This document shows, piece after piece, positions 8,107 through 20,650 of a stretch of DNA of 64,000 nt. A program made the position numbers and the translations under genes. Source of the stretch: Gemmatimonadaceae bacterium. Lineage in GTDB: Bacteria > Gemmatimonadota > Gemmatimonadetes > Gemmatimonadales > Gemmatimonadaceae. The stretch's first letter is position 1, and each line of letters opens with the position of its first letter. The notes beneath the pieces were generated by a model. The model saw only the letters and a program-made list of their open reading frames with translations. It was not told the DNA's origin and did no database searches. The stretch is taken from assembly GCA_045803545.1 (NCBI GenBank), contig JBJMOW010000005.1, forward strand, positions 800,001 through 864,000, given 5' to 3'.

Positions 8107-8412
8107 TCACGAGCCGGTCGAATCCGGCAGAATCTGGACGGTATCAGCAGGAAAGGCGTCCAGCGGATCGGGGCTGGAGTTGGGAATTCCCTCGACCTTC
8201 TCGCCTGGGCCGCTGTCGTCGCAGTCTTCCTCGCAGGTGACAACGCCGGAAATCAGGATGTATCGGCCGAAGGCGGCACCCGTGGGGGCGGTCAAACTGG
8301 CTTTCTTTTGAAGCGGACTGGTGGGGCCGGAGGGACCGGTGGAATCGCTGCAAGCGACGCTGCCACCGACGGCAAGAAGAGCAAAGCCCCAAAGCCAATG
8401 ACGACCTGACAT
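8107..8412 (-). CDS. small lipoprotein, candidate signal-peptide precursor 1 (101 aa, motif AAFGRYILISG-x3-CEEDC)
   Basis: GAGGG SD 8 nt before ATG; signal peptide with lipobox SVAC; motif shared with 14186-14416; preceded by a sigma54 promoter. Confidence 0.8.
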   Translation of the reverse strand: MSGRHWLWGFALLAVGGSVACSDSTGPSGPTSPLQKKASLTAPTGAAFGRYILISGVVTCEEDCDDSGPGEKVEGIPNSSPDPLDAFPADTVQILPDSTGS

Positions 8413-8472: not shown

Positions 8473-8520
8473 AGCATACCATGTGCCCCGAAGCAAGTCG
8501 TTTCGCCGTCGATACTTAGT
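8473..8520 (-). promoter_or_regulatory. sigma54 promoter P1 with upstream AA-N19-TTAG element
   Basis: Minus strand GGGCACATGGTATGCT (8488-8473), GG-N10-GC; plus-strand TTAG at 8516 sits at the same offset as in P2 and P3. Confidence 0.8.
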
Positions 8521-8613: not shown

Positions 8614-10224
8614 CTAACCAGTGACCGTCCACTCGGCGAGATCCACCCACCACGCGTTTGGCCTGATTCCGATCGGATGAATCCGTTTGGATGCACCCTG
8701 GACGTTTCTCAACTCATAGATCCACATCGCAGGTGCGTCATCGGTGAGTATCCGATACGCCCGACGATACAACTCGGTGCTACGCGTCGGGTTCATCTCT
8801 CTGACTGCGCTGTCGATAAGGGCGTCGAACGCCGGATTGCTATAGGAGGTCGCGTTGTACCCGCCCTTCTTGATCTCAGAGCTCGCCCACTCCTCCCGCA
8901 CTGAAGATGGTGTCGGATCGATATGCCAGGCATTGAGCAGCACCTCGAATTTCCTGTTTTCCATATTGGCGCCGAAGGTGTTCAGCTCGAGCTCGTCGAT
9001 GCGAACTTCGGCGCCCGCCTTCCGCCACTGCTCCTGAAGCAAGACTGCGATTCGCTTACGAATGGTGCTCGAGCTTGGTACGCTCAAGCTGAATGAAAGC
9101 GGGATCGACCCGCGGGCGCGCATGCCGTTGGCGCCACGCTTCCAACCCAGGGAGTCAAGCGTGCGCGCCGCTCCGTCCGGATCATAGCGAAGCCCGAGGG
9201 TTGTATCGCTCGTGGCAAGAATTCGAGTCGCTGGACCATAGGCAACGAGGCCGAGCGTGTCGAATACGTTTTTCACGATCGACGCGCGATCGATTGCTCT
9301 CACCAAGGCGCGTCGGGTCTCTCGGTCGCCGAACACCGGGTGCGGTCCAGTATTCCGCGCATCGCGGAGGTTGAAAGCGGCGTACCCGTAGTCGAGGCTT
9401 CCGGCGGAGACGATCACGTCTTTGCCCTTCGACTTCACTTCCGCGACCCGTTCGGGCTTCACCACGTCGAGGAAGTCGGCGGTGCCGTCCAGAAATCTGA
9501 GCTCGGCGGTCGGATAATCCGCGGCGATCACCCAGATCACCCTGTCGGCATTCGGTCGACCCCGATAGTTGGTGGTGTCGGCCTGCAGCACGATTCGCGC
9601 GCTACGGTCCCACGACCCGAACTTGAAGCGGCCACTACCAACTGGCGCCCGGGCGAAATCGCTTTCCGCGAGCTTGGCCGCTTGTGTCTTCTCGAGCAAA
9701 TGTTGAGGCAGGATGACAACGGGTGTCGCCGCCTTGAAGAACTGATCGGGCGCACGTCTGTGAAACCATACGACTGCCGTCAGTGAATCGGGCACTGTCA
9801 CCGAATCAACATCGTCGAGATTCCCCGACAGCGGCGAAGCCAGTGAAGTGTCCTTCACCAGGCCGAAGGTGTAGCGCACGTCGTACGCGCTGACCGCCAC
9901 CCCGTCGTGCCAGCGTGCGCTGGGATTTATGTGAAATGATATCCAGGTCGAGTCGGGACTCCACCGCCAGCGATCGGCGAGTCGAGGAGTGAAGCCGGCG
10001 TCGCCGACGGTGTTCAAGGTCGGGCCCACATCAGCAAGGTTATCGAAAACCTGATCTACGACTTGCTTGCCCTGCAGCGTCAGTGTGAGGGGCGGCAACA
10101 GAACGTCAGCGTCTGCAGCGGTCGAGATGACGATCGTTCCACCTACACGCCTCTCCGTCGAGCACGCCGCGAGAACCGACATCAACGCGAGCGTGATCGA
10201 GAAAATGGGAGCTATTCTCTTCAA
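8614..10224 (-). CDS. peptide ABC transporter substrate-binding lipoprotein (SBP family 5, OppA/DppA-like), 536 aa
   Basis: Lipobox LAAC; ARWHDG, PVGSGRFK, ETRRAL, YSNPAFDAL family-5 SBP motifs; TTG start overlaps the upstream stop (TTGA) with AGGA SD. Confidence 0.9.
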   Translation of the reverse strand: MKRIAPIFSITLALMSVLAACSTERRVGGTIVISTAADADVLLPPLTLTLQGKQVVDQVFDNLADVGPTLNTVGDAGFTPRLADRWRWSPDSTWISFHINPSARWHDGVAVSAYDVRYTFGLVKDTSLASPLSGNLDDVDSVTVPDSLTAVVWFHRRAPDQFFKAATPVVILPQHLLEKTQAAKLAESDFARAPVGSGRFKFGSWDRSARIVLQADTTNYRGRPNADRVIWVIAADYPTAELRFLDGTADFLDVVKPERVAEVKSKGKDVIVSAGSLDYGYAAFNLRDARNTGPHPVFGDRETRRALVRAIDRASIVKNVFDTLGLVAYGPATRILATSDTTLGLRYDPDGAARTLDSLGWKRGANGMRARGSIPLSFSLSVPSSSTIRKRIAVLLQEQWRKAGAEVRIDELELNTFGANMENRKFEVLLNAWHIDPTPSSVREEWASSEIKKGGYNATSYSNPAFDALIDSAVREMNPTRSTELYRRAYRILTDDAPAMWIYELRNVQGASKRIHPIGIRPNAWWVDLAEWTVTG

Positions 10225-11867
10225 ACGAAGTTTCCTATTGAGACGGCTGCAATGTTTTGCGGCGTCTGCCGGTCGGGAATCGTGGTGCTCGATGCCCATT
10301 CCAGAAACGCATCGAGCAGCATCGGATCGAACTGCCCGTTAGACGAGCGCATCACTTCGGCGGCACGCGCATGCGACAAGCTATCCCGGTACGACCGCGC
10401 CGTTGTCAGCGCGTCGTAGACGTCGGCGACGCAAAGAATCCGCGCAGCAAACGGGATATCATCCCCTTTCAGTCCATCCGGGTAGCCACTGCCATCCCAC
10501 CGCTCGTGATGATTGCGGATAATCGATCGCACATCACCCGGAAAATCGATGTCGGCCACGAGGTCCAGCCCCGCTTCCGGATGGCGCTTCATGATCGACC
10601 ACTCTTCCTCGGTGAGATCGCCCGCCTTGTTCAATACTTCGGTCGGTACGATGATCTTGCCGATGTCGTGGAGCAGTGCGCCAAGCCTGAACCAGAAGAG
10701 GGACTGGGCGTCCATCCCCATGCTGTCCGCCAGTACGCATGCAAAGAACGCGACGCGTTGGCAGTGACCCTGGGTGTAATGGTCTTTGCTCTCGATCGAA
10801 TCGCCCCAGTGGTGCGCCATCTCGAGAAACCTGGCTTCCAGCGCTGCGTTGCGACGTTCCACCTGCGCTACGCGGTGCTGTGCCTTTAGTCGTGAGTAAA
10901 GCGCGTGCGATTCGTTGAGGTGCGCGAGCATATCGCGATGCCGCTTCTGGGTCCAATACAGCTCCGCGAGTTGCTCGGTGACGTCTGCCTTCAGCAGCAG
11001 GTCCTCTGCTTCCTCGGCGCATTCTGACGCGCGGCCGAGGTATTCGGCGGCCTTCATGGAGTCGCCACGCTCACGTGCAATCACGCCGACATGGCGGAAG
11101 ACTTCACCGCGCCAGGAAGCGGTGATCTCACCCGTAAGCTCCAATAGTGGCGAGGCGCGTTCCTGCGCTTCCTCGAACCGGCCAGTCGCGATGCAGAGCT
11201 GAATCTGATTGAGGGCGACGTTCAGTCTGTTCGCCTGATCGTTCTCCTCACCGAAAGTGCGTTCCGCTTCGGCGTAGGCTTGCGCGGCGCTTTCGAGGTC
11301 CCCGAGGTCGCTATACGCGAGGCCAATGTTGTTGAGGACCTGCGCCGCCTGATCGCGCCGACCGAGCTTTCGATACCCTTCGAAACTCGACTTGAATGCG
11401 CTGAGCGCGCGGTTGATGTCACCGCGAATGCTGGCGACGGTACCCAGATTCTGATCGATCATCGCCAGTGCCTCTGCATCGCCAATCGACTGCGCGGTGA
11501 GGCGTGCTTCCGTGTAGCGCGACTCCGCCAGATCGAGATCACCACCGGTCTGATGGACGATGGCGACTACGTTGAGCGCTTGCGCGATTGCAGACGCTGA
11601 GCCGGCCTGCGATGCAGCGGCAACAGCCGCCTCCAATACATCCATCGCGGCGCCGCGATTGCCCAGCTCGAGGTAGACCCGGCCCAGCCAGCGCAGAGCG
11701 GACAGGCGGGTTACGTCGTCGGCAAACGGATTGCGCACGAGCAGCTCGTAGCGGTGCGACGCATCCGTCCAGCGACCCTCCCGCTCCGCGACTTTCGCTT
11801 CTTCAACGAGAGATTGTATTGCCTGCGATTCCACCTCGCTCTCGCGAGATGTGGAACGTGCCGTCAT
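10221..11867 (-). CDS. TPR-repeat + HD-GYP domain phosphodiesterase (copy 1), 548 aa
   Basis: N-terminal TPR helices (ALNVVA, DQNLG, LNNIG); KDHYTQGHCQRV, LLHDIGK, HHERWDGSGYP, VADVYDALT. Confidence 0.92.
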   Translation of the reverse strand: MTARSTSRESEVESQAIQSLVEEAKVAEREGRWTDASHRYELLVRNPFADDVTRLSALRWLGRVYLELGNRGAAMDVLEAAVAAASQAGSASAIAQALNVVAIVHQTGGDLDLAESRYTEARLTAQSIGDAEALAMIDQNLGTVASIRGDINRALSAFKSSFEGYRKLGRRDQAAQVLNNIGLAYSDLGDLESAAQAYAEAERTFGEENDQANRLNVALNQIQLCIATGRFEEAQERASPLLELTGEITASWRGEVFRHVGVIARERGDSMKAAEYLGRASECAEEAEDLLLKADVTEQLAELYWTQKRHRDMLAHLNESHALYSRLKAQHRVAQVERRNAALEARFLEMAHHWGDSIESKDHYTQGHCQRVAFFACVLADSMGMDAQSLFWFRLGALLHDIGKIIVPTEVLNKAGDLTEEEWSIMKRHPEAGLDLVADIDFPGDVRSIIRNHHERWDGSGYPDGLKGDDIPFAARILCVADVYDALTTARSYRDSLSHARAAEVMRSSNGQFDPMLLDAFLEWASSTTIPDRQTPQNIAAVSIGNFV

Positions 11868-12883
11868 GACGATGCGAGAATGGTGCGCCGCTGGGAGCCT
11901 TCATCGCGCAGTTTGCGCGTCAAAGTGGGGCGGGAGATTCCAAGAATGCGGGCGGCCGCGCTCAGATTGCCACCGGTGAGGCCGATGGTGGTGTGAATCG
12001 CTTCGTCGACGATCGCCTGCAACGACTTCCCCTCGGGCGGGATGCGGATCATGCCGCCCGTCGGAGTTTCGACCAGCGGCACGTAGGAACGCCGCTGAAG
12101 TGAAAGGTGGTGCGGCTGAATGACGTCACCGGTACAGACGACAACCGCGCGCTCGATGACATTCTTGAGCTCGCGGATATTGCCCGGCCAACGGTGTCTT
12201 TCCAGCGCGGCGATCGAGTCCTGGCCCAGACGCAGGTTCTCCCGACCCTCACTTTCGGCGTGGCGGCGAACGAAAAAGTTGGCGAGGATAGGAATGTCTC
12301 CTTCCCTCTCGCGCAACGCCGGAAGCTCGAGCCTTGCAACGTTAAGTCGATAAAAGAGATCGGCACGGAAGCGGTTGTCAGCGACCGCCGTCTCCAGAGA
12401 CGAGTTTGTCCCTGCGACAATGCGTGCGTCAAGAGCGCGTTCTTCGGACCCGCCCAACCGCCGGAATCGCCTGTCTTCGACGACCCTTAGGAGCTTTGCC
12501 TGCAGCTTAAGTGGCAGTTCCGCGACCTCGTCGAGAAAAACAGTCCCGGCGCCGGCCACTTCGAAAAGACCCCGTTTTAACGCGCGGGCATCAGTAAACG
12601 CTCCCGGCTCGTGTCCAAAGAGCTCGCTTTCGAGCAAGGTTTCCGGGATGGCAGCGCAGTTAATCGCTACGAAAGGCTCGGCAGCCCGGGCGCTCGCCGC
12701 GTGGATGCCGCGGGCGAAAAGCTCTTTGCCAGTGCCCGTTTCACCTACGAGCAATACTGTCACGCTGCGACTCGCTGCCACTTGCGTCGCCAGGGCAATG
12801 ACTTCGCGGATTGCAGGGCTCTGTCCGATTACGTGAGCATCCCACCGCTCCTGCGCGGTTTGCTGCAGTCGGGCTGTAATAAT
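11864..12883 (-). CDS. sigma54-dependent activator (AAA+ plus Fis HTH) with no N-terminal sensor domain; start uncertain (ATT 12883 or GTG 12781)
   Basis: VIGQSPAIREV, GETGTGKE, ESELFGHEPGAFTDA, FLDEV, WPGNIREL, GGNLSAAARILGISRPTL. Confidence 0.93.
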   Translation of the reverse strand: MITARLQQTAQERWDAHVIGQSPAIREVIALATQVAASRSVTVLLVGETGTGKELFARGIHAASARAAEPFVAINCAAIPETLLESELFGHEPGAFTDARALKRGLFEVAGAGTVFLDEVAELPLKLQAKLLRVVEDRRFRRLGGSEERALDARIVAGTNSSLETAVADNRFRADLFYRLNVARLELPALREREGDIPILANFFVRRHAESEGRENLRLGQDSIAALERHRWPGNIRELKNVIERAVVVCTGDVIQPHHLSLQRRSYVPLVETPTGGMIRIPPEGKSLQAIVDEAIHTTIGLTGGNLSAAARILGISRPTLTRKLRDEGSQRRTILASS

Positions 12884-13018: not shown

Positions 13019-14128
13019 TTAGAGCTCTGCCGTTGGGGGCTCTGAAATGTCCGGATTCGGGCGGATGTACTTCGGGCGCAATCGCGCAGCCTTCTCCTTC
13101 GATGGGCCTGTTCCGAGCGTTGCGAGCAGTGCTTTAATCTCGGCGGCGTCGGTTCTGGCACCAAGGTCGTCAAATGACTCAGCCGCCTCACGCCAGGCCA
13201 GCTCGGCGTCAGCATTGTTTCCCAGGGCGTGCGAGGTCTGACCGAGCTCACGAAGCATCTCCGCCTGTAAGAGGCGGTCTTCCAGCCCCTCTGCCTCGAA
13301 GATTCCGATACGAAGCGTAGCGAGACTGGCGCTCAGCGACCCGCGTTCGCGCTCGATGCGGGCACGGCACTTCAGCGCCTCGGCCATGGTGAGGTGGTCC
13401 CCGCGGTGGTGGGCGCTCCCATAGGCTTCGGCGCACGCGTGCTCCGCTTCGTCGAGTTTTCCCATCGCGACCCAAACCCAGCCGAGATTGAGAACCAGTA
13501 CGCTCTCGACGAGTGCATCGCCCCGATTGCGGGCAATTCGCAACCCGCGGTCGAAAGTCTCTACCGCCCGCTGATAGTGTCCGAGCTTCGTGTACAGCAT
13601 GCCCAGGTTATTGAGAACCCAGGACATTGCCTCGCTATCCCTTGTCTGCTCGAACGCGCCAAGGCTGTTGTAGTAGCGAGCTTCCGCGGCGACGAATCTG
13701 CCGCGCATGTTGAGGAGAACGCCCCGGTTCTGCTCGATCATTCCGAGCAGACGCACGTCGCCCGCTCTGGCGGCGTACTCCGCCGCTTCGTGATAAAGGC
13801 GCTCGCATTCGATGAGGTTGCCGCGTCGCTGGGCGATGATCGCCAGGCAATTGTACGCGTGTGCCTTGCAGGCGGCCGATCCAGAGAGATCCGCCTGGTG
13901 CAGACTCTCTGTGTAGCAGCGATACGCGGCTTCCGTCTCACCCTGCTCGCGATGCAGAGTTCCCTTCCAGCGAAGGGCTTCGGCTAGAGCAGCTGATTCC
14001 TGCTCACGCTCGAGGGATTCGATGGCGTCGTCGTAGTAGCCGAATGCCTTCGCTGTATCACCCCGCCGCTCAGCATCGCGTGCCAGCTCGATCAGGCGAC
14101 GCGATTCTTCAGGTGCAGTCTGCTTCAT
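13019..14128 (-). CDS. cytoplasmic TPR-repeat protein (copy 1), 369 aa
   Basis: All-helical repeats (ALRWKGTL, AYNCLAII, EQNRGVL, VLNNLGML, LNLGWV); no signal peptide. Confidence 0.88.
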   Translation of the reverse strand: MKQTAPEESRRLIELARDAERRGDTAKAFGYYDDAIESLEREQESAALAEALRWKGTLHREQGETEAAYRCYTESLHQADLSGSAACKAHAYNCLAIIAQRRGNLIECERLYHEAAEYAARAGDVRLLGMIEQNRGVLLNMRGRFVAAEARYYNSLGAFEQTRDSEAMSWVLNNLGMLYTKLGHYQRAVETFDRGLRIARNRGDALVESVLVLNLGWVWVAMGKLDEAEHACAEAYGSAHHRGDHLTMAEALKCRARIERERGSLSASLATLRIGIFEAEGLEDRLLQAEMLRELGQTSHALGNNADAELAWREAAESFDDLGARTDAAEIKALLATLGTGPSKEKAARLRPKYIRPNPDISEPPTAEL

Positions 14129-14185: not shown

Positions 14186-14416
14186 CTACTTCAAACTGTC
14201 GGTTCTGAAAAGAAGATTTTTCGCTTGGTCGGTGCAGCCTTCGACACAGGCTTGCGCGCCAGAGATGAGAATGTAGCGCGAATATGCTGCAGTAACCGGA
14301 GAGCTGGAATTTACGGTTTTAAGAGGCGGGCTGGTAAGAGCGGTGTAATCTCCGCACGCAAGACACGCGACGGCGCTCACAGCCGCCAAATACTTAAACA
14401 AACGGCGACCTAACAT
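14186..14416 (-). CDS. small lipoprotein, candidate signal-peptide precursor 2 (76 aa, motif AAYSRYILISG-x3-CVEGC)
   Basis: GAGGTGG SD before ATG 14416; MLGRRLFKYLAAVSAVACLAC signal peptide/lipobox; motif shared with 8107-8412. Confidence 0.82.
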   Translation of the reverse strand: MLGRRLFKYLAAVSAVACLACGDYTALTSPPLKTVNSSSPVTAAYSRYILISGAQACVEGCTDQAKNLLFRTDSLK

Positions 14417-14462: not shown

Positions 14463-14579
14463 GGCATAGGGCGTGCCCTTTGCTAACCCACTGTTCTACA
14501 TGATCTTAGCGCGAGTGGGTTGGTTTCCCGCATCCATTTTGTCGTAACGCCGCTTTACGATCGTAAACGTTTCTTTAGC
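14463..14579 (-). promoter_or_regulatory. sigma54 promoter P2 with GCTAA-N19-TTAGC element and tandem 19-bp candidate activator sites
   Basis: Minus strand GGGCACGCCCTATGCC (14478-14463); GCTAA 14482, TTAGC 14506; TCGTAACGCCGCTTTACGA (14542-14560) and TCGTAAACGTTTCTTTAGC (14561-14579). Confidence 0.82.
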
Positions 14580-14594
14580 GGACTTTCTTCGGCG

Positions 14595-16241
14595 TCACGC
14601 GGCGGGACTGGAGGCGAAAATCGCCAACCTTTGTGGCGTCGGACGGCCTGGAATGTCGGCGGTCTCGGCCCAGGCAAGGAAGGTTTCGAGTAGCTCGGGA
14701 TCAAATTGACCTGCTGATGACTGCATGATCTCGGCTGCGCGGGCGTGGGTCAGGCCCGGACGATAGGATCTGGTCGTGGTCAGGGCGTCGTAGACATCGG
14801 CCACGCAGAGAATTCGCGCCGCGTAAGGGATCTGCTCGCCCTTGAGGCCGTCCGGGTAGCCGGCACCATCCCAGCGCTCGTGATGATTGCGAATGATGGC
14901 GCGTATGTCACCGGGAAAATCGATGTCAGCGACCAGTTCGAGCCCCGCCTCGGGGTGACGCTTCATGATCGACCACTCTTCATCGGTCAGCTTGCCCGGC
15001 TTGTTTAGCACCTCGGTGGGAACGATGATTTTGCCAATGTCGTGCAGAAGTGCGCCAATCCTGAACCAGAACAGTGAGCGCGAATTGAATCCCGCGGTCT
15101 CGGCGAGTACGCACGCGAAGAAAGCGACGCGCTCGCAGTGGCCCTGGGTGTAGCGATCCTTGCTTTCGATCGAGTTGCCCCACTGCTTCGCCATCTCGAG
15201 GAAACGGGACTCCAAGGCATCGTTGCGCTTATCGACCTGTGCCACCCGATGCTGCGCCTTGAGCTGCGAATAGAGTGAGTGCGACTCGTTGAGCGAGTGA
15301 AGCATGTCGCGGTGCCGCTTCTGTGACCAGTAAACTTCCGCGAGCTGCTCCGCGACGTCCGCCCGCAGGAGAAGGTCACCGCTGTCGATTGCGAGATCTT
15401 CTGCGCGCAACAGGCTGTCGGTCGCTTTCGCGTAATCTCCGCACTCGCGAGCGATCACGCCCACGTGGCGGTGTACCTCCCCGCGCCACGGCGCCTGCTC
15501 CTTCGTGGCGACCTCCAATAGCTCGTCGCATTGGACGAGCGCTTCGTCGAAGCGACGTGCCGCGATGTAGAGCTGCACCTTGTTGACAGCGAGGTCGAGT
15601 TGTCGCGCGCGGTCTCCCTCTTCTTCGAACGCCCGAGCGGCTTCGTTGTACGCAACTTCGGCATCGCTCAGCTCGCCGAGCTCCATGTAGGCGAGTGCGA
15701 TGTTGTTCAGTATCTGAGCTTCATGATTACGCATGCCCAGAGTCTGGTATCCGAGATGGCTCAGACGGAAAGCTTCGAGCGCAACCCGGATGTCGCCGCG
15801 GATCATTGCGACCGTGCCGAGGTTTTGATCGATCATGGCGATCAATGCGCCGTCGCCGGCCACCTCCGCTTTGGCGCGCGCGGCGGCGTAAATAGCGGCA
15901 GCCTGGTCGAGGTCTCCGCCAACCTGGTAGGCGATGCCAACCACGTTGAGCGCCTGAGCCACGGCCGGTGGCGAGCCACAGATGTCAGCAGATGTGACCG
16001 CCAATTCGAGCACGTCCAGCGCCGCGCCACGATTCCCCTGCTCGAGATAGGCGCGACCGAGCCAGCGGAGGGCGGCAAGGCGAGTATCCGGCTGCGTGTG
16101 GGGGTCGCGAACCAACGTCTCATAGACTGCGCAGGCGTCGGCCCATCGACCTTCCCGCTCGGCTTTCTTGGCGAGGTCAATACTTTCGCGAACGGTGGTG
16201 GATTCCACCGCCTTCAATTCAACTGTGGGCCGGTTGGTCAT
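14595..16241 (-). CDS. TPR-repeat + HD-GYP domain phosphodiesterase (copy 2), 548 aa
   Basis: Clear paralog of 10221-11867, same length; KDRYTQGHCERV, LLHDIGK, HHERWDGAGYP. Confidence 0.92.
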   Translation of the reverse strand: MTNRPTVELKAVESTTVRESIDLAKKAEREGRWADACAVYETLVRDPHTQPDTRLAALRWLGRAYLEQGNRGAALDVLELAVTSADICGSPPAVAQALNVVGIAYQVGGDLDQAAAIYAAARAKAEVAGDGALIAMIDQNLGTVAMIRGDIRVALEAFRLSHLGYQTLGMRNHEAQILNNIALAYMELGELSDAEVAYNEAARAFEEEGDRARQLDLAVNKVQLYIAARRFDEALVQCDELLEVATKEQAPWRGEVHRHVGVIARECGDYAKATDSLLRAEDLAIDSGDLLLRADVAEQLAEVYWSQKRHRDMLHSLNESHSLYSQLKAQHRVAQVDKRNDALESRFLEMAKQWGNSIESKDRYTQGHCERVAFFACVLAETAGFNSRSLFWFRIGALLHDIGKIIVPTEVLNKPGKLTDEEWSIMKRHPEAGLELVADIDFPGDIRAIIRNHHERWDGAGYPDGLKGEQIPYAARILCVADVYDALTTTRSYRPGLTHARAAEIMQSSAGQFDPELLETFLAWAETADIPGRPTPQRLAIFASSPAA

Positions 16242-16325: not shown

Positions 16326-17348
16326 CTACTGCAGCAGCTCGAGCTGATTCCTGACTTCTGTTAGCTCTGGCACAGCTCCGATCTTCTCGTACGAGTCAAA
16401 AGCTTCTCGCAAGGCAGAGCGCGCAGCGCCGGCGTTGCCTACGGCACGGGAGATCTCGCCCAGCTCGCGAAGCATTTCGGCGTGGAGGAGCCGGTCTTCG
16501 GCTCCTTCGGCTTCGTAGATCGCGATGCGGAGCGTGGCAATGCTCATGTCGAGCGCACCACGCTGCCGCTCGATGGCGGCACGGACACGCAGCGCGCCAG
16601 CAGCGCTGAGGTGGTCTCCGCGACGTTGCGCCTGACCAAGTGCGTCGACGCACCAGAGGTCTGCTTTGTCGAGTCTGCCGAGACCCATCCACGCTTCGGC
16701 GATGTTCAGCGTGATGACGTTCTTCACGATGCTATCGTTCCGGGCGATTGCGATCGCCATCCCGCGCTGCAGATGCTCGAGCGCTTCGCCGTAATTGCGC
16801 AACTTGGTGTTCAGAATTCCCAGGTTGTTGAGAACCCAGGACATCGGTTCGGTGTCACCCGCGGTCTCGAAAGCACCGAGGCTATTGGAGTAGAACGCCG
16901 CGGCCTTTCCATAGTCGCCAACCATGCTCGCGAGCACACCGCGATTCTGTTCTATCATGCCGAGCAGGCGCGCCTCTCCAGCCTTCACGGCGAGCTCGGA
17001 CGCTTCCGCGTAGAGACGCTCGGTTTCCTTGTGCTCGCAGCGACGCTGCGAGATGGTGCCGAGGCAGTTGAGTGCGTGAGCCTGGTGACCGATGGAACCG
17101 GTCGCTCTTGCCCTCTCCAGGCTTGCCGTATAACAGCGAAACGCTGCTTCGGTTTCGCCCCGCTCCCGAAGCAGCGTTCCTTTCCATCGCAAAACGTCGG
17201 CGATAAATGCGTCGGTGCAATCCTCACCGAGCTGCGCCAGCGCATCGTCGAACAGACCAAGCGCCTTGTCGTTTTCTTCCCGCTTTTCAGCTGTTCGCGC
17301 CAGTTCTACAAGTTGGCGGGCGCGCTCTACATTCTTTGAGTTTTTCAT
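16326..17348 (-). CDS. cytoplasmic TPR-repeat protein (copy 2), 340 aa
   Basis: Paralog of 13019-14128 (LRWKGTL, RLLGMIEQNRGVL, MSWVLNNLG, EDRLL.AEMLRELG). Confidence 0.88.
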   Translation of the reverse strand: MKNSKNVERARQLVELARTAEKREENDKALGLFDDALAQLGEDCTDAFIADVLRWKGTLLRERGETEAAFRCYTASLERARATGSIGHQAHALNCLGTISQRRCEHKETERLYAEASELAVKAGEARLLGMIEQNRGVLASMVGDYGKAAAFYSNSLGAFETAGDTEPMSWVLNNLGILNTKLRNYGEALEHLQRGMAIAIARNDSIVKNVITLNIAEAWMGLGRLDKADLWCVDALGQAQRRGDHLSAAGALRVRAAIERQRGALDMSIATLRIAIYEAEGAEDRLLHAEMLRELGEISRAVGNAGAARSALREAFDSYEKIGAVPELTEVRNQLELLQ

Positions 17349-17396: not shown

Positions 17397-18050
17397 TCAG
17401 CCTGACGCCAGCATGTATCGGGAGAAGTGGTTCAACAGCCACGTCTCGACTTCAGCCTGGCCGCTGCGTGGATTCGAGAAAATCGTGGTCGTTTCGATTT
17501 CCAACGCACGTAGAATGCCTGACAGATCCAGCAGGTCGTGGGCGAAATACGCGCCGAACGAATTCAGTGCCTTCGGCGTGCCGTATACCGCAGTGTTGTT
17601 GAGGCGCTGGGTGACGACCACCGGTTTACGGAACGTGAGACCGTGCGGCTGCATGTCATAAGCGACGTAGCCGGTGCCGTCCGACGTGATGGTGATAGTG
17701 GTCGACGAGGTCAACGCGCCGTAGGGGAAACTGATCGTGAAGTCCGATCCCGGGATGGCGAGGGTTCCACCATTGACGCCAATCGTCGCAGAAACGCTGC
17801 GGACCTGATTGACGTGAGAAGGTGACCACTTCACTGCGTTGACCGGTATACCGTTCGGATCCGTCTGGAATCCGATGACGCGGATCACGTCGCCGAGGAG
17901 ATTGACGACTCCGCCGACGAGTCCTGAAAGGAGACCGTTATCGGCGGTGGTTGGAGCGACTGGTTGAGTTGGGATGCTGTCCGTGCACGACATGACTCCG
18001 ACAGCCGTGACAACGAGCAGCAGCGAGCGGAAAAATCTTGAGCGAATCAT
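17397..18050 (-). CDS. ZU5-like domain lipoprotein B ending in HFSRYMLASG (217 aa)
   Basis: MIRSRFFRSLLLVVTAVGVMSC lipoprotein signal; GGTLAIPGSDFTISFPYGAL...ITIT...MQPHGLTFRKPVVVT matches the ZU5 pattern. Confidence 0.8.
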   Translation of the reverse strand: MIRSRFFRSLLLVVTAVGVMSCTDSIPTQPVAPTTADNGLLSGLVGGVVNLLGDVIRVIGFQTDPNGIPVNAVKWSPSHVNQVRSVSATIGVNGGTLAIPGSDFTISFPYGALTSSTTITITSDGTGYVAYDMQPHGLTFRKPVVVTQRLNNTAVYGTPKALNSFGAYFAHDLLDLSGILRALEIETTTIFSNPRSGQAEVETWLLNHFSRYMLASG

Positions 18051-18085: not shown

Positions 18086-18706
18086 TCAACCAGAAGCAAG
18101 CATGTAACGCGAGAAGTGCCTGATGATCCACACCTGCGCTTCAGGGAGCCGCGCATTGAGTGGCGAGAAGATCGTGGTCGAAGGCTCGATCTCGAGGACC
18201 GGGACTTTGCCACTGAGCTTCACCTTATCATCGGAGATATAGGCCGCGAAGATCGACGTTCTCAGCGGCTGACCTGCGACGGTGGTGTTGCGCAGGGACT
18301 GCGTGATGGTGACGTCTTTTTTGAACTGCGTCCCCGTCGGCTCCATCTTGTAGGCGACGTACTTCTCGTCGGCCGTGACGGTGATGGTCAGCGCCGAGCC
18401 GAGCGCCCCGGCCGGGATGTCCATCGTGAAGCCGGTTTCGGGAATCGAGATCCGCCCGCCAGACTGATCGACGCGCTGCGAAACCTTTACCTGAGTTTTG
18501 CCTTTGTTGCTCCACCACAGGGCATGCAGCTCGAGGTCAGCCGCGGCATTGTTTATCGAACTGGTAACCGAGCCGGAGCCAGGACCTTTCGCGGCAGCTG
18601 CGTCCAGGGGAGCAGTGAGACTCTGGAGAGCGGGATCGGCGCAGGAAGCGATAAGGAGCGCGCCGACGAGCGAGCCAAAGGATCTGAAGAGTCTAAGGCG
18701 AAGCAT
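18086..18706 (-). CDS. ZU5-like domain lipoprotein A ending in HFSRYMLASG (206 aa)
   Basis: Lipobox IASC; GGRISIPETGFTMDIPAGAL...ITVT...MEPTGTQFKKDVTIT ZU5 pattern; paralog of 17397-18050. Confidence 0.8.
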   Translation of the reverse strand: MLRLRLFRSFGSLVGALLIASCADPALQSLTAPLDAAAAKGPGSGSVTSSINNAAADLELHALWWSNKGKTQVKVSQRVDQSGGRISIPETGFTMDIPAGALGSALTITVTADEKYVAYKMEPTGTQFKKDVTITQSLRNTTVAGQPLRTSIFAAYISDDKVKLSGKVPVLEIEPSTTIFSPLNARLPEAQVWIIRHFSRYMLASG

Positions 18707-18748: not shown

Positions 18749-18880
18749 GGCAACGGCTGTGCCCAGCGCTAAGCTGTTTTAAATCAATGAGTTAGCTTTT
18801 CCACATTGAGCGAGCTCATCAATAACGGTGCAATATTTTTTTACACCCGAAATTTTTCTTTACATCTGTCAATTTTTTAC
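18749..18880 (-). promoter_or_regulatory. sigma54 promoter P3 with IHF consensus site and tandem candidate activator sites
   Basis: Minus strand GGGCACAGCCGTTGCC (18764-18749); AATCAA-TGAG-TTA (18782-18794) matches IHF WATCAANNNNTTR; 19-bp units at 18828-18846 and 18847-18865 containing TTTACA. Confidence 0.85.
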
Positions 18881-19084: not shown

Positions 19085-20650
19085 ATGTCGATGGCAAATA
19101 ACAGAGCACGGCTCGTCGTAGCCGTAATTACCGCTTTTGTAGGCGGATTGATCGTCGCATCCGGGTTCAACTGGACCAAGCTCGGATTTGCGCAAACTCG
19201 TCCCGCCGCGGCAGTAGTCCAGCCAATTGCCGAGGCCAGCAACGCGTTCGTCGCGATCGCCAACAACGTCACTCCGGCGGTCGTTTCGATCGAAGTCGTA
19301 AGCACGCCGAAGAGCTCGAATAGCACGACTCGCGGACGCGTCCAGGTTCCACAAGGCGTTCCGCCTGACATGCAGGACTTCTTCCGTCAATTCGATATCC
19401 CGCAGCAATCGCGTCCAATGCGCGGTCAGGGTTCCGGGTTCATCGTAACGTCGAACGGATACATTCTTACCAACAATCACGTCGTCACCAATCAGGATCG
19501 TGAAACGGTGGCCGATCGCGTGACGGTGAGACTGCTCGATCATCGCGTGTTCACTGCGAAAGTGATCGGTCACGATCGCACGACCGACGTCGCGGTAATC
19601 AAGATCGATGGCAGCAACTTCCCCACCTTGCCGCTTGGCAACGATATGAACGCGCGCACCGGCGAATGGGTACTCGCGATCGGCAATCCGCTTGGTCTCG
19701 AAAATACCGTCACCGCCGGTATCATCAGCGCGAAAGGCCGCAGCCTCGCCGAGCTGATGAATCCGAATGGAACGAATCAGTACGCGATCAGCGATCTGAT
19801 ACAGACCGACGCGGCGATCAACCCCGGCAACTCCGGTGGTCCGCTCGTCAATGCGCGTGGCGAAGTGATCGGCATCAACAGCGCGATCGCCAGTCCGACC
19901 GGCTATAACGCGGGCTACGGTTTCGCAATTCCGATCACGCTGGCTAAGCGCGTCATGGATCAGCTCATTGCCAATGGGCGCGTACGCGTTCCGGCGCTCG
20001 GCATCGGCATCGATGATGTGAGTCCTGAAGACGCAGCGGTCGCGGGCGTGAAAGACATTCGAGGCGTTCTCGTTCGGAACTTCCCGAGCGACGATACGCC
20101 GGCTAAGAAGGCGGGCCTTCAGCCGGGTGACGTGATCATCACGGCGGATGGTCAGCCGGTCGATCGCGTCAGCACTCTCCAGAGAATCGTGCGCAATCAC
20201 AACCCTGGCGAGACGATCGAGATCGAAGCGATGCGGTACGGTCAGCGCAAGACTTTCAGCGTCAAGTTGATGGAAGCGCAGACTGACGCCGAAGTCGCTT
20301 CCAGTAACTCCACTCCCGCGAGCAACGGCGGCACCATTCATCCGGCGCTGGGGATCGCAGTGGCGCCGGTAAGTGCCGAGATGGCGGCGCAGGCAAGGAT
20401 GCCAACTCCAGTTCGTGGCGTCATGGTTTCCGATGTCACCCCTGGCGGTCCTGCCGACGAGAAGCTGACTCAGAACGACGTCATCACCGAAGTCCTTTAC
20501 CCGCTGCCGCGCCGTCCGATCAACTCGCCGACGGATCTACAGTCGATACTGAAAGGATTGAAGAACGGCGAGTATATCAGTCTCAGTGTTTTCAACCTAG
20601 CGGACAGAAATCATGCTCCGCGGATCGTCAACATTCAGGTTGGCAGATAG
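19085..20650 (+). CDS. degP: HtrA/DegP family periplasmic serine protease with PDZ domains
   Basis: GSGFIV, TNNHVV, DVAVIK, QTDAAINPGNSGGPL; C-terminal PDZ segments. Confidence 0.95.
   Translation: MSMANNRARLVVAVITAFVGGLIVASGFNWTKLGFAQTRPAAAVVQPIAEASNAFVAIANNVTPAVVSIEVVSTPKSSNSTTRGRVQVPQGVPPDMQDFFRQFDIPQQSRPMRGQGSGFIVTSNGYILTNNHVVTNQDRETVADRVTVRLLDHRVFTAKVIGHDRTTDVAVIKIDGSNFPTLPLGNDMNARTGEWVLAIGNPLGLENTVTAGIISAKGRSLAELMNPNGTNQYAISDLIQTDAAINPGNSGGPLVNARGEVIGINSAIASPTGYNAGYGFAIPITLAKRVMDQLIANGRVRVPALGIGIDDVSPEDAAVAGVKDIRGVLVRNFPSDDTPAKKAGLQPGDVIITADGQPVDRVSTLQRIVRNHNPGETIEIEAMRYGQRKTFSVKLMEAQTDAEVASSNSTPASNGGTIHPALGIAVAPVSAEMAAQARMPTPVRGVMVSDVTPGGPADEKLTQNDVITEVLYPLPRRPINSPTDLQSILKGLKNGEYISLSVFNLADRNHAPRIVNIQVGR

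Follow-up and report, generated by a model that had tools for sequence, protein, structure and literature searches.

The gene cluster around LP2

The window (the whole stretch of 64,000 nucleotides analysed) carries on its minus strand, in this order, ZU5a, ZU5b, TPR2, TPR-HD-GYP protein 2 (THD2), LP2, TPR1, a sigma54 activator, TPR-HD-GYP protein 1 (THD1), a family-5 solute-binding lipoprotein, and LP1 (Table 1). The cluster is flanked by htrA and dnaK, and tig-clpP-clpX-lon lies next to it. ZU5a, LP2, and LP1 are each preceded by a sigma54-type box.

Table 1 Coordinates of the features in the window
Feature	Position	Strand	Description
LP1	8107..8412	-	Later copy of the short form, F-GRYILISG; own sigma54 box at 8474-8487
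Family-5 solute-binding lipoprotein	8614..10299	-	Orphan; nearest solved relative is the oligopeptide binder AppA
THD1 (TPR-HD-GYP protein 1)	10221..11867	-	
Sigma54 activator	11864..12781	-	AAA+ and Fis HTH; lacks an N-terminal sensor domain
TPR1	13019..14128	-	All-helical TPR protein of about eight repeats, no visible signal peptide; candidate receptor
LP2	14186..14416	-	76-aa predicted lipoprotein; ZU5-type lipoprotein gene without the ZU5 core (148-150 codons deleted)
C-x3-C motif of LP2	14234..14248	-	Inherited from the tail of the ZU5 ancestor
Core peptide SRYILISG of LP2	14258..14281	-	Former last strand after the HF↓S autocleavage site
Linker of LP2	14282..14353	-	From the ZU5 gene, ends V-x-A-x-[FY]; deletion junction between 14282 and 14281
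Signal peptide (residues 1-20) and predicted lipidated Cys21 of LP2	14354..14416	-	Cys invariant in alignments; putative lipidation
Predicted sigma54 -24/-12 promoter of the LP2-TPR1-activator unit	14464..14477	-	GG-N10-GC box
Palindromic GTAA-N-TTAC box	14543..14559	-	Also upstream of the ZU5a promoter; spotted by eye in aligned upstream regions; candidate activator enhancer
THD2 (TPR-HD-GYP protein 2)	14595..16241	-	66% identical to THD1
TPR2	16326..17348	-	54% identical to TPR1
ZU5b lipoprotein	17397..18050	-	C-terminal HF↓SRYMLASG
ZU5a lipoprotein	18086..18706	-	C-terminal HF↓SRYMLASG; sigma54 box at 18750-18763
HtrA/DegP-type protease	19085..20650	+	Divergent neighbour throughout the genus; speculatively, a candidate releasing protease

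The preliminary description had read LP2 as a 76-aa frame directly upstream of TPR1, and the translated frame and the gene positions bear this out. Its choice of ATG 14416 as the start also stands: a GAGGTG ribosome site lies at 14428-14423, and orthologues begin at the second Met. ATG 14467 overlaps the -12 'TGC' of the GG-N10-GC box (14477-14464), the collision that had been pointed out. The motif described as common to the two small lipoproteins is present (AAY-SRYILISG-AQA-CVEGC in LP2, AAF-GRYILISG-VVT-CEEDC in LP1), at the spacing given for it: Y45 of LP2 lies 24 residues after C21, and the corresponding distance in LP1 is 27 residues. LP1 and LP2 are 37% identical over 70 aa (tblastn within their own genome, E 7e-8). 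A six-frame search of the 3.7-Mb genome with a loose form of the motif, composed only after the motif had been seen, gives four hits, compared with an expectation of 0.02 that is to be read in that light. The four hits are LP1, LP2, and both ZU5 tails, all within one 10-kb cluster.

The invariant Cys21 behind a hydrophobic stretch is predicted to be lipidated. Among slot genes with enough upstream DNA, a sigma54 box is found in front of 22 of 22 short forms and 21 of 22 full forms (the two forms are defined below). In two of three metatranscriptome runs, contigs of relatives (at least 88% likeness) span the LP2 bin; they give neither strand nor level and are a weak hint of expression. The DNA is present in soil metagenomes, and two of the LP2 homologues are named Gemmatimonadaceae proteins.

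TPR1 (369 aa) lies 58 bp downstream of LP2 and matches Pfam TPR_12 (E 1e-20). Its model is a superhelix (pLDDT 94.5), closest to APPBP2, MalT domain III, and phage Rap. By its modelled fold, TPR1 may bind peptides, as TPR superhelices often do, yet the fold shows no function by itself. The solute-binding lipoprotein matches AppA, its best solved relative, with an E value of 8e-39, and an Opp-type permease with ATPases is encoded elsewhere in the genome (C5:222917-228156). In sigma54 activators the loop usually reads GAFTGA. The loop of the activator in the window (11864-12781) reads GAFTDA, and identity is 84-99% across most of the genus.

Seven genomes (L045, L090, L092, L093, L046, L095, and L096) have a single-copy cluster, ZU5-TPR-activator-TPR-HD-binder, without the LP2 slot. 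This is likely the state before the LP2 slot arose by duplication; otherwise it is a later collapse. Extra ZU5-TPR units occur in L072, L073, L061, and L082 (G064, G124, G090, and G075). In most of them the tail is a variant one (SRYILASG, SRYILVSG) and the additional TPR copy differs in the groove. The ZU5-TPR pair as a whole seems to be what is duplicated.

LP2 is a ZU5 lipoprotein gene without the ZU5 core

Matches to TPR1 are found in 61 of 109 genomes of the genus (a tally that includes the unpublished G070 and G071, used for the tally only), and 60 stretches from the genus (Gemmatimonadaceae) were compared. The slot between THD2 and TPR1 is readable in 48 genomes, a count that leaves out the seven single-copy genomes, which have no slot, and G087, in which the slot is apparently broken. 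It holds a short gene of the LP2 type in 22 genomes, a full ZU5 gene in 25, and a gene cut by the contig end in one. The short form is the full form minus a segment that runs from the linker xxF to the Ser of HF↓S, as in the short G017 sequence ...PTVGASF-SRYILISGAWVCVEGC and the full G009 sequence ...LIVGASF-[core]-NHF↓SRYILISGVWVSVGD. The missing segment amounts to 148-150 codons in the 24 full genes measured. LP2 of the window matches each end of a full form (E 5e-8 and 7e-4), and LP2 and the full-form slot genes have the same promoter.

The model of the full form (pLDDT 76.8) is superimposable on the ZU5 domain of ankyrin-B (Z 11.3, rmsd 2.7, 120 residues aligned; Foldseek E 1.4e-4) and matches UNC5b (Z 8.3) and the GAIN domain of BAI3 (Z 7.9). 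The tail peptide is the last strand of this model, and HFS precedes that strand in 25 of 25 full forms, so the full-length orthologue has both the ZU5/GAIN fold and its motif. LP2 has neither: the beta-sandwich core is deleted, LP2 has no Pfam match, and the site of the catalytic H-x-S/T motif reads A-Y-S, with His at that position in none of the 22 short slot genes. From the motif, and by analogy with the accessible part of bioRxiv 10.64898/2026.05.12.724683, we infer that the full-length ancestor of LP2 self-cleaved at HF↓S.

Of 301 genomes sampled across the phylum, 108 have full-length ZU5 genes with a short tail, which indicates that the full form is ancestral. LP2 originated by in-frame deletion of the ZU5 core, followed by purifying selection. 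The proposal that LP2 and the ZU5 proteins are two unrelated scaffolds is thereby refuted, as LP2 is the orthologue of the full-length ZU5 lipoprotein that occupies the same slot in 25 of 47 classifiable relatives, both of its ends match that gene, and the ZU5 form came first. The likeness of position that had been drawn, LP2 before TPR1 as the ZU5 genes before TPR2, is correct, but it reflects shared descent from a duplicated ZU5-TPR unit. Convergence of an unrelated disordered scaffold on the peptide of the ZU5 proteins could be entertained inside the window alone, where LP2 and ZU5a/b have only nine residues in common; the match of both LP2 ends to a full ZU5 gene with the same slot and promoter in relatives leaves it next to no probability.

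The same deletion arose repeatedly

Short and full forms are interleaved on the neighbour-gene trees and on the tree of the retained DNA. In the latter, the short forms group together in none of 200 bootstrap trees, and the starred branches force three changes. A single clade of all short forms is rejected with the retained DNA (42 rows, p-AU 9e-5) as well as with the flanking proteins (44 rows, p-AU 3e-5). When the deep short form G115 is set aside, monophyly is rejected with the flanking proteins (p 0.013; quick tree, LG+G4) and is not rejected with the retained DNA (p 0.057). The peptide of G115 begins with a Thr that is found on the N-side of its full-length sister. These comparisons of sequences show repeated deletion at one junction: two events are certain, and three or more are probable.

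Transfer is disfavoured as a way to regain the ZU5 core: among full forms the core tree mirrors that of the hosts (r 0.81), with core distances that grow as those between hosts do, and there is no close donor. Microhomology was considered as a sufficient cause and rejected; measured on 24 present-day full genes, which stand in for the ancestral sequences, it amounts to 0-6 bases at the junction, compared with 41-68 other in-frame matches of at least 5 bases per gene. As the junction has no special microhomology, selection for this product is the simplest cause of its repeated use. Spread of a single allele by recombination is possible for the shallower cases. LP1 is an unlikely template for repeated conversion: on a tree from which G105 (an LP1-type copy beside a full gene) is absent, all six LP1 rows group in a single clade that lies within the LP2 copies (91/82, not starred), and LP1 therefore looks younger. 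Intein-like splicing of the core was rejected, as a HINT fold is absent and Ala is frequent as the N-side +1 residue. The pattern used to look for short ZU5-less lipoproteins found none in 90 loci from other genera and families.

Selection on the short form and its copies

In a clade of 11 members, all short, pN/pS falls from 0.47 in the linker to 0.15 in the tail and 0.048 in the eight core residues (pooled pairs, which are non-independent). By this measure, the core peptide is under purifying selection after the deletion. A profile search returned 304 short homologues. Among the best 120 of the 304, the peptide reads SRYILISG in 105 and GRYILISG in 13, F or Y stands before it in 118, and C-x3-C is present in 119; the spacing from Cys to peptide is 23-26 residues in the 118 measured. 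In the slot, C-x3-C is retained in 20 of 22 short genes versus 6 of 25 full forms. The C-terminal extension of the short forms varies freely in length, and in some related short lipoproteins the residue before the peptide is His or Asn instead of an aromatic residue. Among 31 loci that cover the gap behind the binder gene, LP1 is present there in 7; two further genomes also have it.

These selection data largely refute the idea that LP2 is a functionless, decaying remnant of a ZU5 gene. The loss of 70% of the gene at its origin and the unconstrained length of the extension could be taken as decay, but the constraint on the core after the deletion, the number of homologues, the retention of the promoter in all 22 short forms, the duplication to a second site as LP1, and the repeated origin make it very improbable.

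A third class of short lipoprotein lies mostly just after dnaK, on the dnaK strand (L037:7738-7941, L074:1567-1776, L075:12885-13088, L132:2504-2941, L133:367-642, and L134:3537-3797). It consists of a signal, a linker, [FHN]-TRYILASG (or N-SRYILISG), and PPxGCxDxGxG[YF]WxC-like residues, which suggests a further, separate ZU5-less carrier of an ancestral-type tail. Lipoproteins of about 45 aa that end in C-P-x-x-G-G-P-G-T-C-like residues and lack the SRY motif (L135:1219-1395, L136:2580-2756, L137:2978-3136, L138:2711-2881, L139:2667-2843, L140:2888-3115, and L141:3-176) are mostly encoded no more than a few kb from another solute-binding protein of family 5, and one has a TPR gene beside it; this family is possibly a second peptide module. 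Among ZU5 tails, those of L205, L220, and L224 are apparently internally duplicated (SRYVIAFSDYVIAW, SEYVLLSTYAVAY, and SDYVLLSTYAVVY). In another family, L152:2595-2783 holds a ZU5-like frame of reduced length that terminates in HHSNYAVAW, with two intact ZU5 genes downstream of it. The contig end cuts this frame, which may have undergone another kind of internal deletion or be a copy in decay.

Pairing and suggestive co-change of tails and TPR proteins

The preliminary description had the tails read by the adjoining TPR proteins. For the ZU5 genes this is supported indirectly, by pairing and by groove co-changes; the Tyr3-to-Trp variants of LP2, in four genomes, have no common compensating change in TPR1. 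In the 90 loci from other genera and families, the top of a phylum-wide listing of full-length ZU5 genes, a TPR or TPR-HD gene directly follows 87 of the 106 ZU5 genes, and another ZU5 gene follows 10. The tails differ between families and track the TPR tree, and each TPR paralogue retains its own upstream peptide gene with its own tail, third copies included.

Co-change was analysed in 82 ZU5-TPR pairs (two of 84 were dropped for coverage). The groove was taken as repeat positions 2, 5, 6, 9, 12, 13, 33, and 34, chosen after the ranked co-change list had been viewed; the accessible text of PMC1261162 supports these positions. Tail position 4 co-changes with TPR columns 216, 179, and 183, all in the groove (z 6.6). 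That score is reached by none of the 12 control columns from the ZU5 core and by 3 of 500 sets of random branches. Tail position 2 favours groove columns overall, a preference equalled by 1 of 42 controls and 5 of 500 random sets. No groove co-change is seen at positions 5 and 7 in the 82 pairs. Twelve statistics were inspected in all.

In untrimmed tails, TPR column 216 is non-Leu for 10 of 10 tails with a non-Ala position 4, compared with 8 of 72 others, and column 252 is acidic for 41 of 43 tails with a basic position 2, compared with 14 of 39 others. Long tandem tails could be re-cut at an inner F↓S, and three tails were trimmed for this; untrimmed tails fit column 216 better, so re-cutting has no support. 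Only four or five pairs are independent. No independent pair contradicts the trend at position 4, and median p values of the sign tests are 0.125-0.5, as 0.05 is out of reach with so few pairs. The sequences thus give a suggestive picture of ZU5 tails that co-change with groove residues of the neighbouring TPR proteins.

In one lineage the ZU5 tails have His in place of Arg2 (R2H). Among conserved columns, the only changes of this lineage in TPR2 and THD2 are E62N and V211A in TPR2 and D216Y in THD2, all in the groove, as well as I134M, which it shares with a sister lineage; TPR1 is unchanged, and THD1 has one change outside the groove. The case is a single event and involves THD2 besides TPR2. 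In 8 of 28 genomes, ZU5a and ZU5b have an identical amino-acid substitution in their tails. The synonymous codons differ, which rules out gene conversion as the source of the identical tails, and such parallel substitutions argue that the exact tail sequence is read by something shared. Of the six fixed differences between TPR1 and TPR2, two lie in the groove, which is no enrichment (p 0.39). The LP2 peptide is nearly invariant across the genus, so it offers no handle on pairing with TPR1. A complex prediction for TPR1 (68-row alignment) with LP2 residues 46-76 (42-row alignment) scored 0.02 against a mark of 0.32, and is not evidence either way.

Comparison with known systems

Peptide signalling through cytoplasmic TPR receptors has been described for Bacillota, and the accessible part of PMC10075063 gives as criteria for RRNPP systems a propeptide of 10-100 aa, a Sec/SPI signal, maturation by peptidases, and an adjacent TPR receptor of 250-500 aa. 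As in the RRNPP(A) systems (Rap-Phr, PlcR-PapR, NprR-NprX, and AimR-AimP), a small exported precursor adjoins a TPR gene; the 76 aa of LP2 and the 369 aa of the adjacent TPR1 fall within these ranges, and an oligopeptide binder is likewise encoded nearby. In contrast, the LP2 signal looks like an SPII signal with an invariant Cys, a type that PMC10075063, as far as its text is accessible, admits only at its 'relaxed' level. The TPR1 model matches phage Rap (Z 25.2, rmsd 4.0, 309 residues aligned) and NprR (Z 21.6), with PlcR also among the matches. However, APPBP2 (Z 30.7) and MalT domain III (Z 28.9) give higher scores, and all-helical repeats score generically. RRNPP receptors have an N-terminal HTH or helical effector module, whereas TPR1 has no Pfam HTH or other effector domain. 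RRNPP systems are found in Bacillota and LP2 in a diderm phylum; its precursor is a lipoprotein descended from an autoprotease, with the peptide internal and followed by C-x3-C, and the outputs would be a sigma54 activator and HD-GYP enzymes. In RRNPP systems the mature peptide returns to the cytoplasm, binds its cognate receptor, and elicits a density-dependent response, for which the family of LP2 offers indirect covariation only. Because the signal is of the lipoprotein type and both receptor homology and binding are putative, we do not file LP2 as an RRNPP member; by analogy, its circuit would work like RRNPP signalling.

MAIN domains are cleaved between F and S, and the fragments stay associated, according to the accessible part of Brogan and Rudner (bioRxiv 10.64898/2026.05.12.724683), which gives the C-terminal piece no known signalling role. 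The ancestor of LP2 likewise had a GAIN/ZU5 fold and an HFS motif. In MAIN proteins, as described there, a large N-terminal ectodomain is freed from a C-terminal anchor, whereas in the ZU5 lipoproteins the anchor is N-terminal and a tail of 7-20 residues would be freed. The MAIN domain itself is absent from LP2, and the main text of that preprint makes no mention of Gemmatimonad, lipoprotein, ZU5, or TPR. Bacterial ZU5 domains have been proposed as autopeptidases (PMC3482391, in its accessible part). The full-length orthologue matches the fold of this superfamily (PIDD, UNC5, Nup98, and GPS/GAIN), whereas LP2 keeps only the strand. In adhesion GPCRs the strand after the cut, the Stachel, is likewise the proposed ligand; it stays fused to the receptor, whereas the tail here would be free and its proposed receptor cytoplasmic. 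In the literature searched, which lies largely outside subscription journals, we found only ZU5, RRNPP, SEAL, and MAIN background, and no description of ZU5-tail/TPR pairing or of a core-deleted form.

Proposed mechanism

We propose that LP2 is a core-deleted lipoprotein of the ZU5/GAIN type that serves as a minimal pro-peptide: an outside protease would release its tail, which would be imported and would bind to the cluster's own TPR proteins in the cytoplasm; we rate this marginally better than an even chance. LP2 would be exported and anchored by lipid at Cys21, with a predicted C57-C61 disulphide outside the cytoplasm. As LP2 lacks the catalytic His and the fold, release of its tail must come from another protease, which would be an envelope protease acting at or near the conserved V-x-A-x-[FY]↓S; HtrA is, speculatively, one candidate. 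The His or Asn before the peptide in some related sequences weakens the case for a fixed protease site. The freed peptide might be captured by the AppA-like binder of the operon and imported through the Opp/App permease of the genome. For an oligopeptide importer, 16-31 residues and a disulphide make a long tail, which would have to be trimmed.

Inside the cell, the peptide would bind a TPR groove, a step that has indirect support for the family; for LP2 the likeliest partner is TPR1, and THD1 and THD2 are possible ones. The sigma54 activator, whose gene comes next after that of TPR1, has no sensor of its own, and TPR1 could serve it in trans as a detached one. This activator in turn may drive the three peptide-gene promoters through the sigma54 boxes and the shared GTAA-N-TTAC palindrome, closing a feedback loop, and the HD-GYP domains may alter c-di-GMP.

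Two other readings have to be weighed. In the first, the TPR proteins do receive the peptide, not as a message from other cells but as a cell-autonomous report on envelope state (export, proteolysis, unfolding, or redox), and stress-driven proteolysis would free it. Kin-specific peptide signals have diversified codes, and the LP2 peptide differs from these in being nearly invariant across the genus, which tells against the pro-peptide reading. That invariance would suit a report, as would the membrane tether, the fixed neighbours htrA and dnaK with the adjoining tig-clpP-clpX-lon, and the separation of MAIN fragments only under SDS or heat (bioRxiv 10.64898/2026.05.12.724683, accessible part). 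On the other hand, tails vary between families in step with the TPR tree, the common sigma54 promoters suggest an autoinduction loop, and the neighbours may merely mark an insertion site. We consider this reading unlikely.

In the second, LP2 is never cleaved and acts in the envelope as a tethered last strand of ZU5, for example by swapping into cleaved ZU5a or ZU5b and so ejecting or mopping up an octapeptide, or by occupying the AppA-like binder. Such a role would accord with the loss of the catalytic His and fold, with Gly in place of the Ser nucleophile in LP1, with the persistence of ZU5a or ZU5b next to the short form in every assembly that includes that end of the cluster, and with the constant distance from Cys to peptide (23-26 residues in the 118 measured among the best 120 of 304 homologues), as a tether might need. 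Yet every TPR paralogue, third copies included, has its own upstream peptide gene and tail, and the same tail occurs in the self-cleaving and the deleted forms of the slot gene, which suits one unchanged tail partner. We judge an uncleaved LP2 to be about as improbable as an envelope report.

The pro-peptide reading of LP2 can be extended to the phylum. Gemmatimonadota would then signal with the C-terminal strand of a self-cleaving ZU5/GAIN lipoprotein, and cytoplasmic TPR and TPR-HD-GYP proteins would be the receptors in this peptide circuit; LP2 would be the repeated birth of a stand-alone pro-peptide gene by the same precise deletion, with release passed to an outside protease and the mini-gene spread by duplication. 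We put this wider circuit forward tentatively, with the balance somewhat against it.

Implications

The firm result is evolutionary: more than once, and at the same junction, a folded autoprotease was reduced to a precursor of 65-100 aa that consists of an anchor and a tail. This repeated reduction isolates the tail as the functional part and names the peptide to synthesise. The natural variant pairs (R2H with TPR2 E62N/V211A and THD2 D216Y) suit a direct test of specificity. If the circuit is real, it would extend TPR-peptide signalling to an abundant diderm soil phylum, built there from a self-cleaving GAIN/ZU5 domain, and the released strand of microbial GAIN-like domains would gain a role that the MAIN paper, in its accessible part, leaves open. 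It would also provide a visible route for the origin of RRNPP-like propeptide/receptor pairs, and a bacterial 'Stachel' strand that acts as a diffusible ligand.
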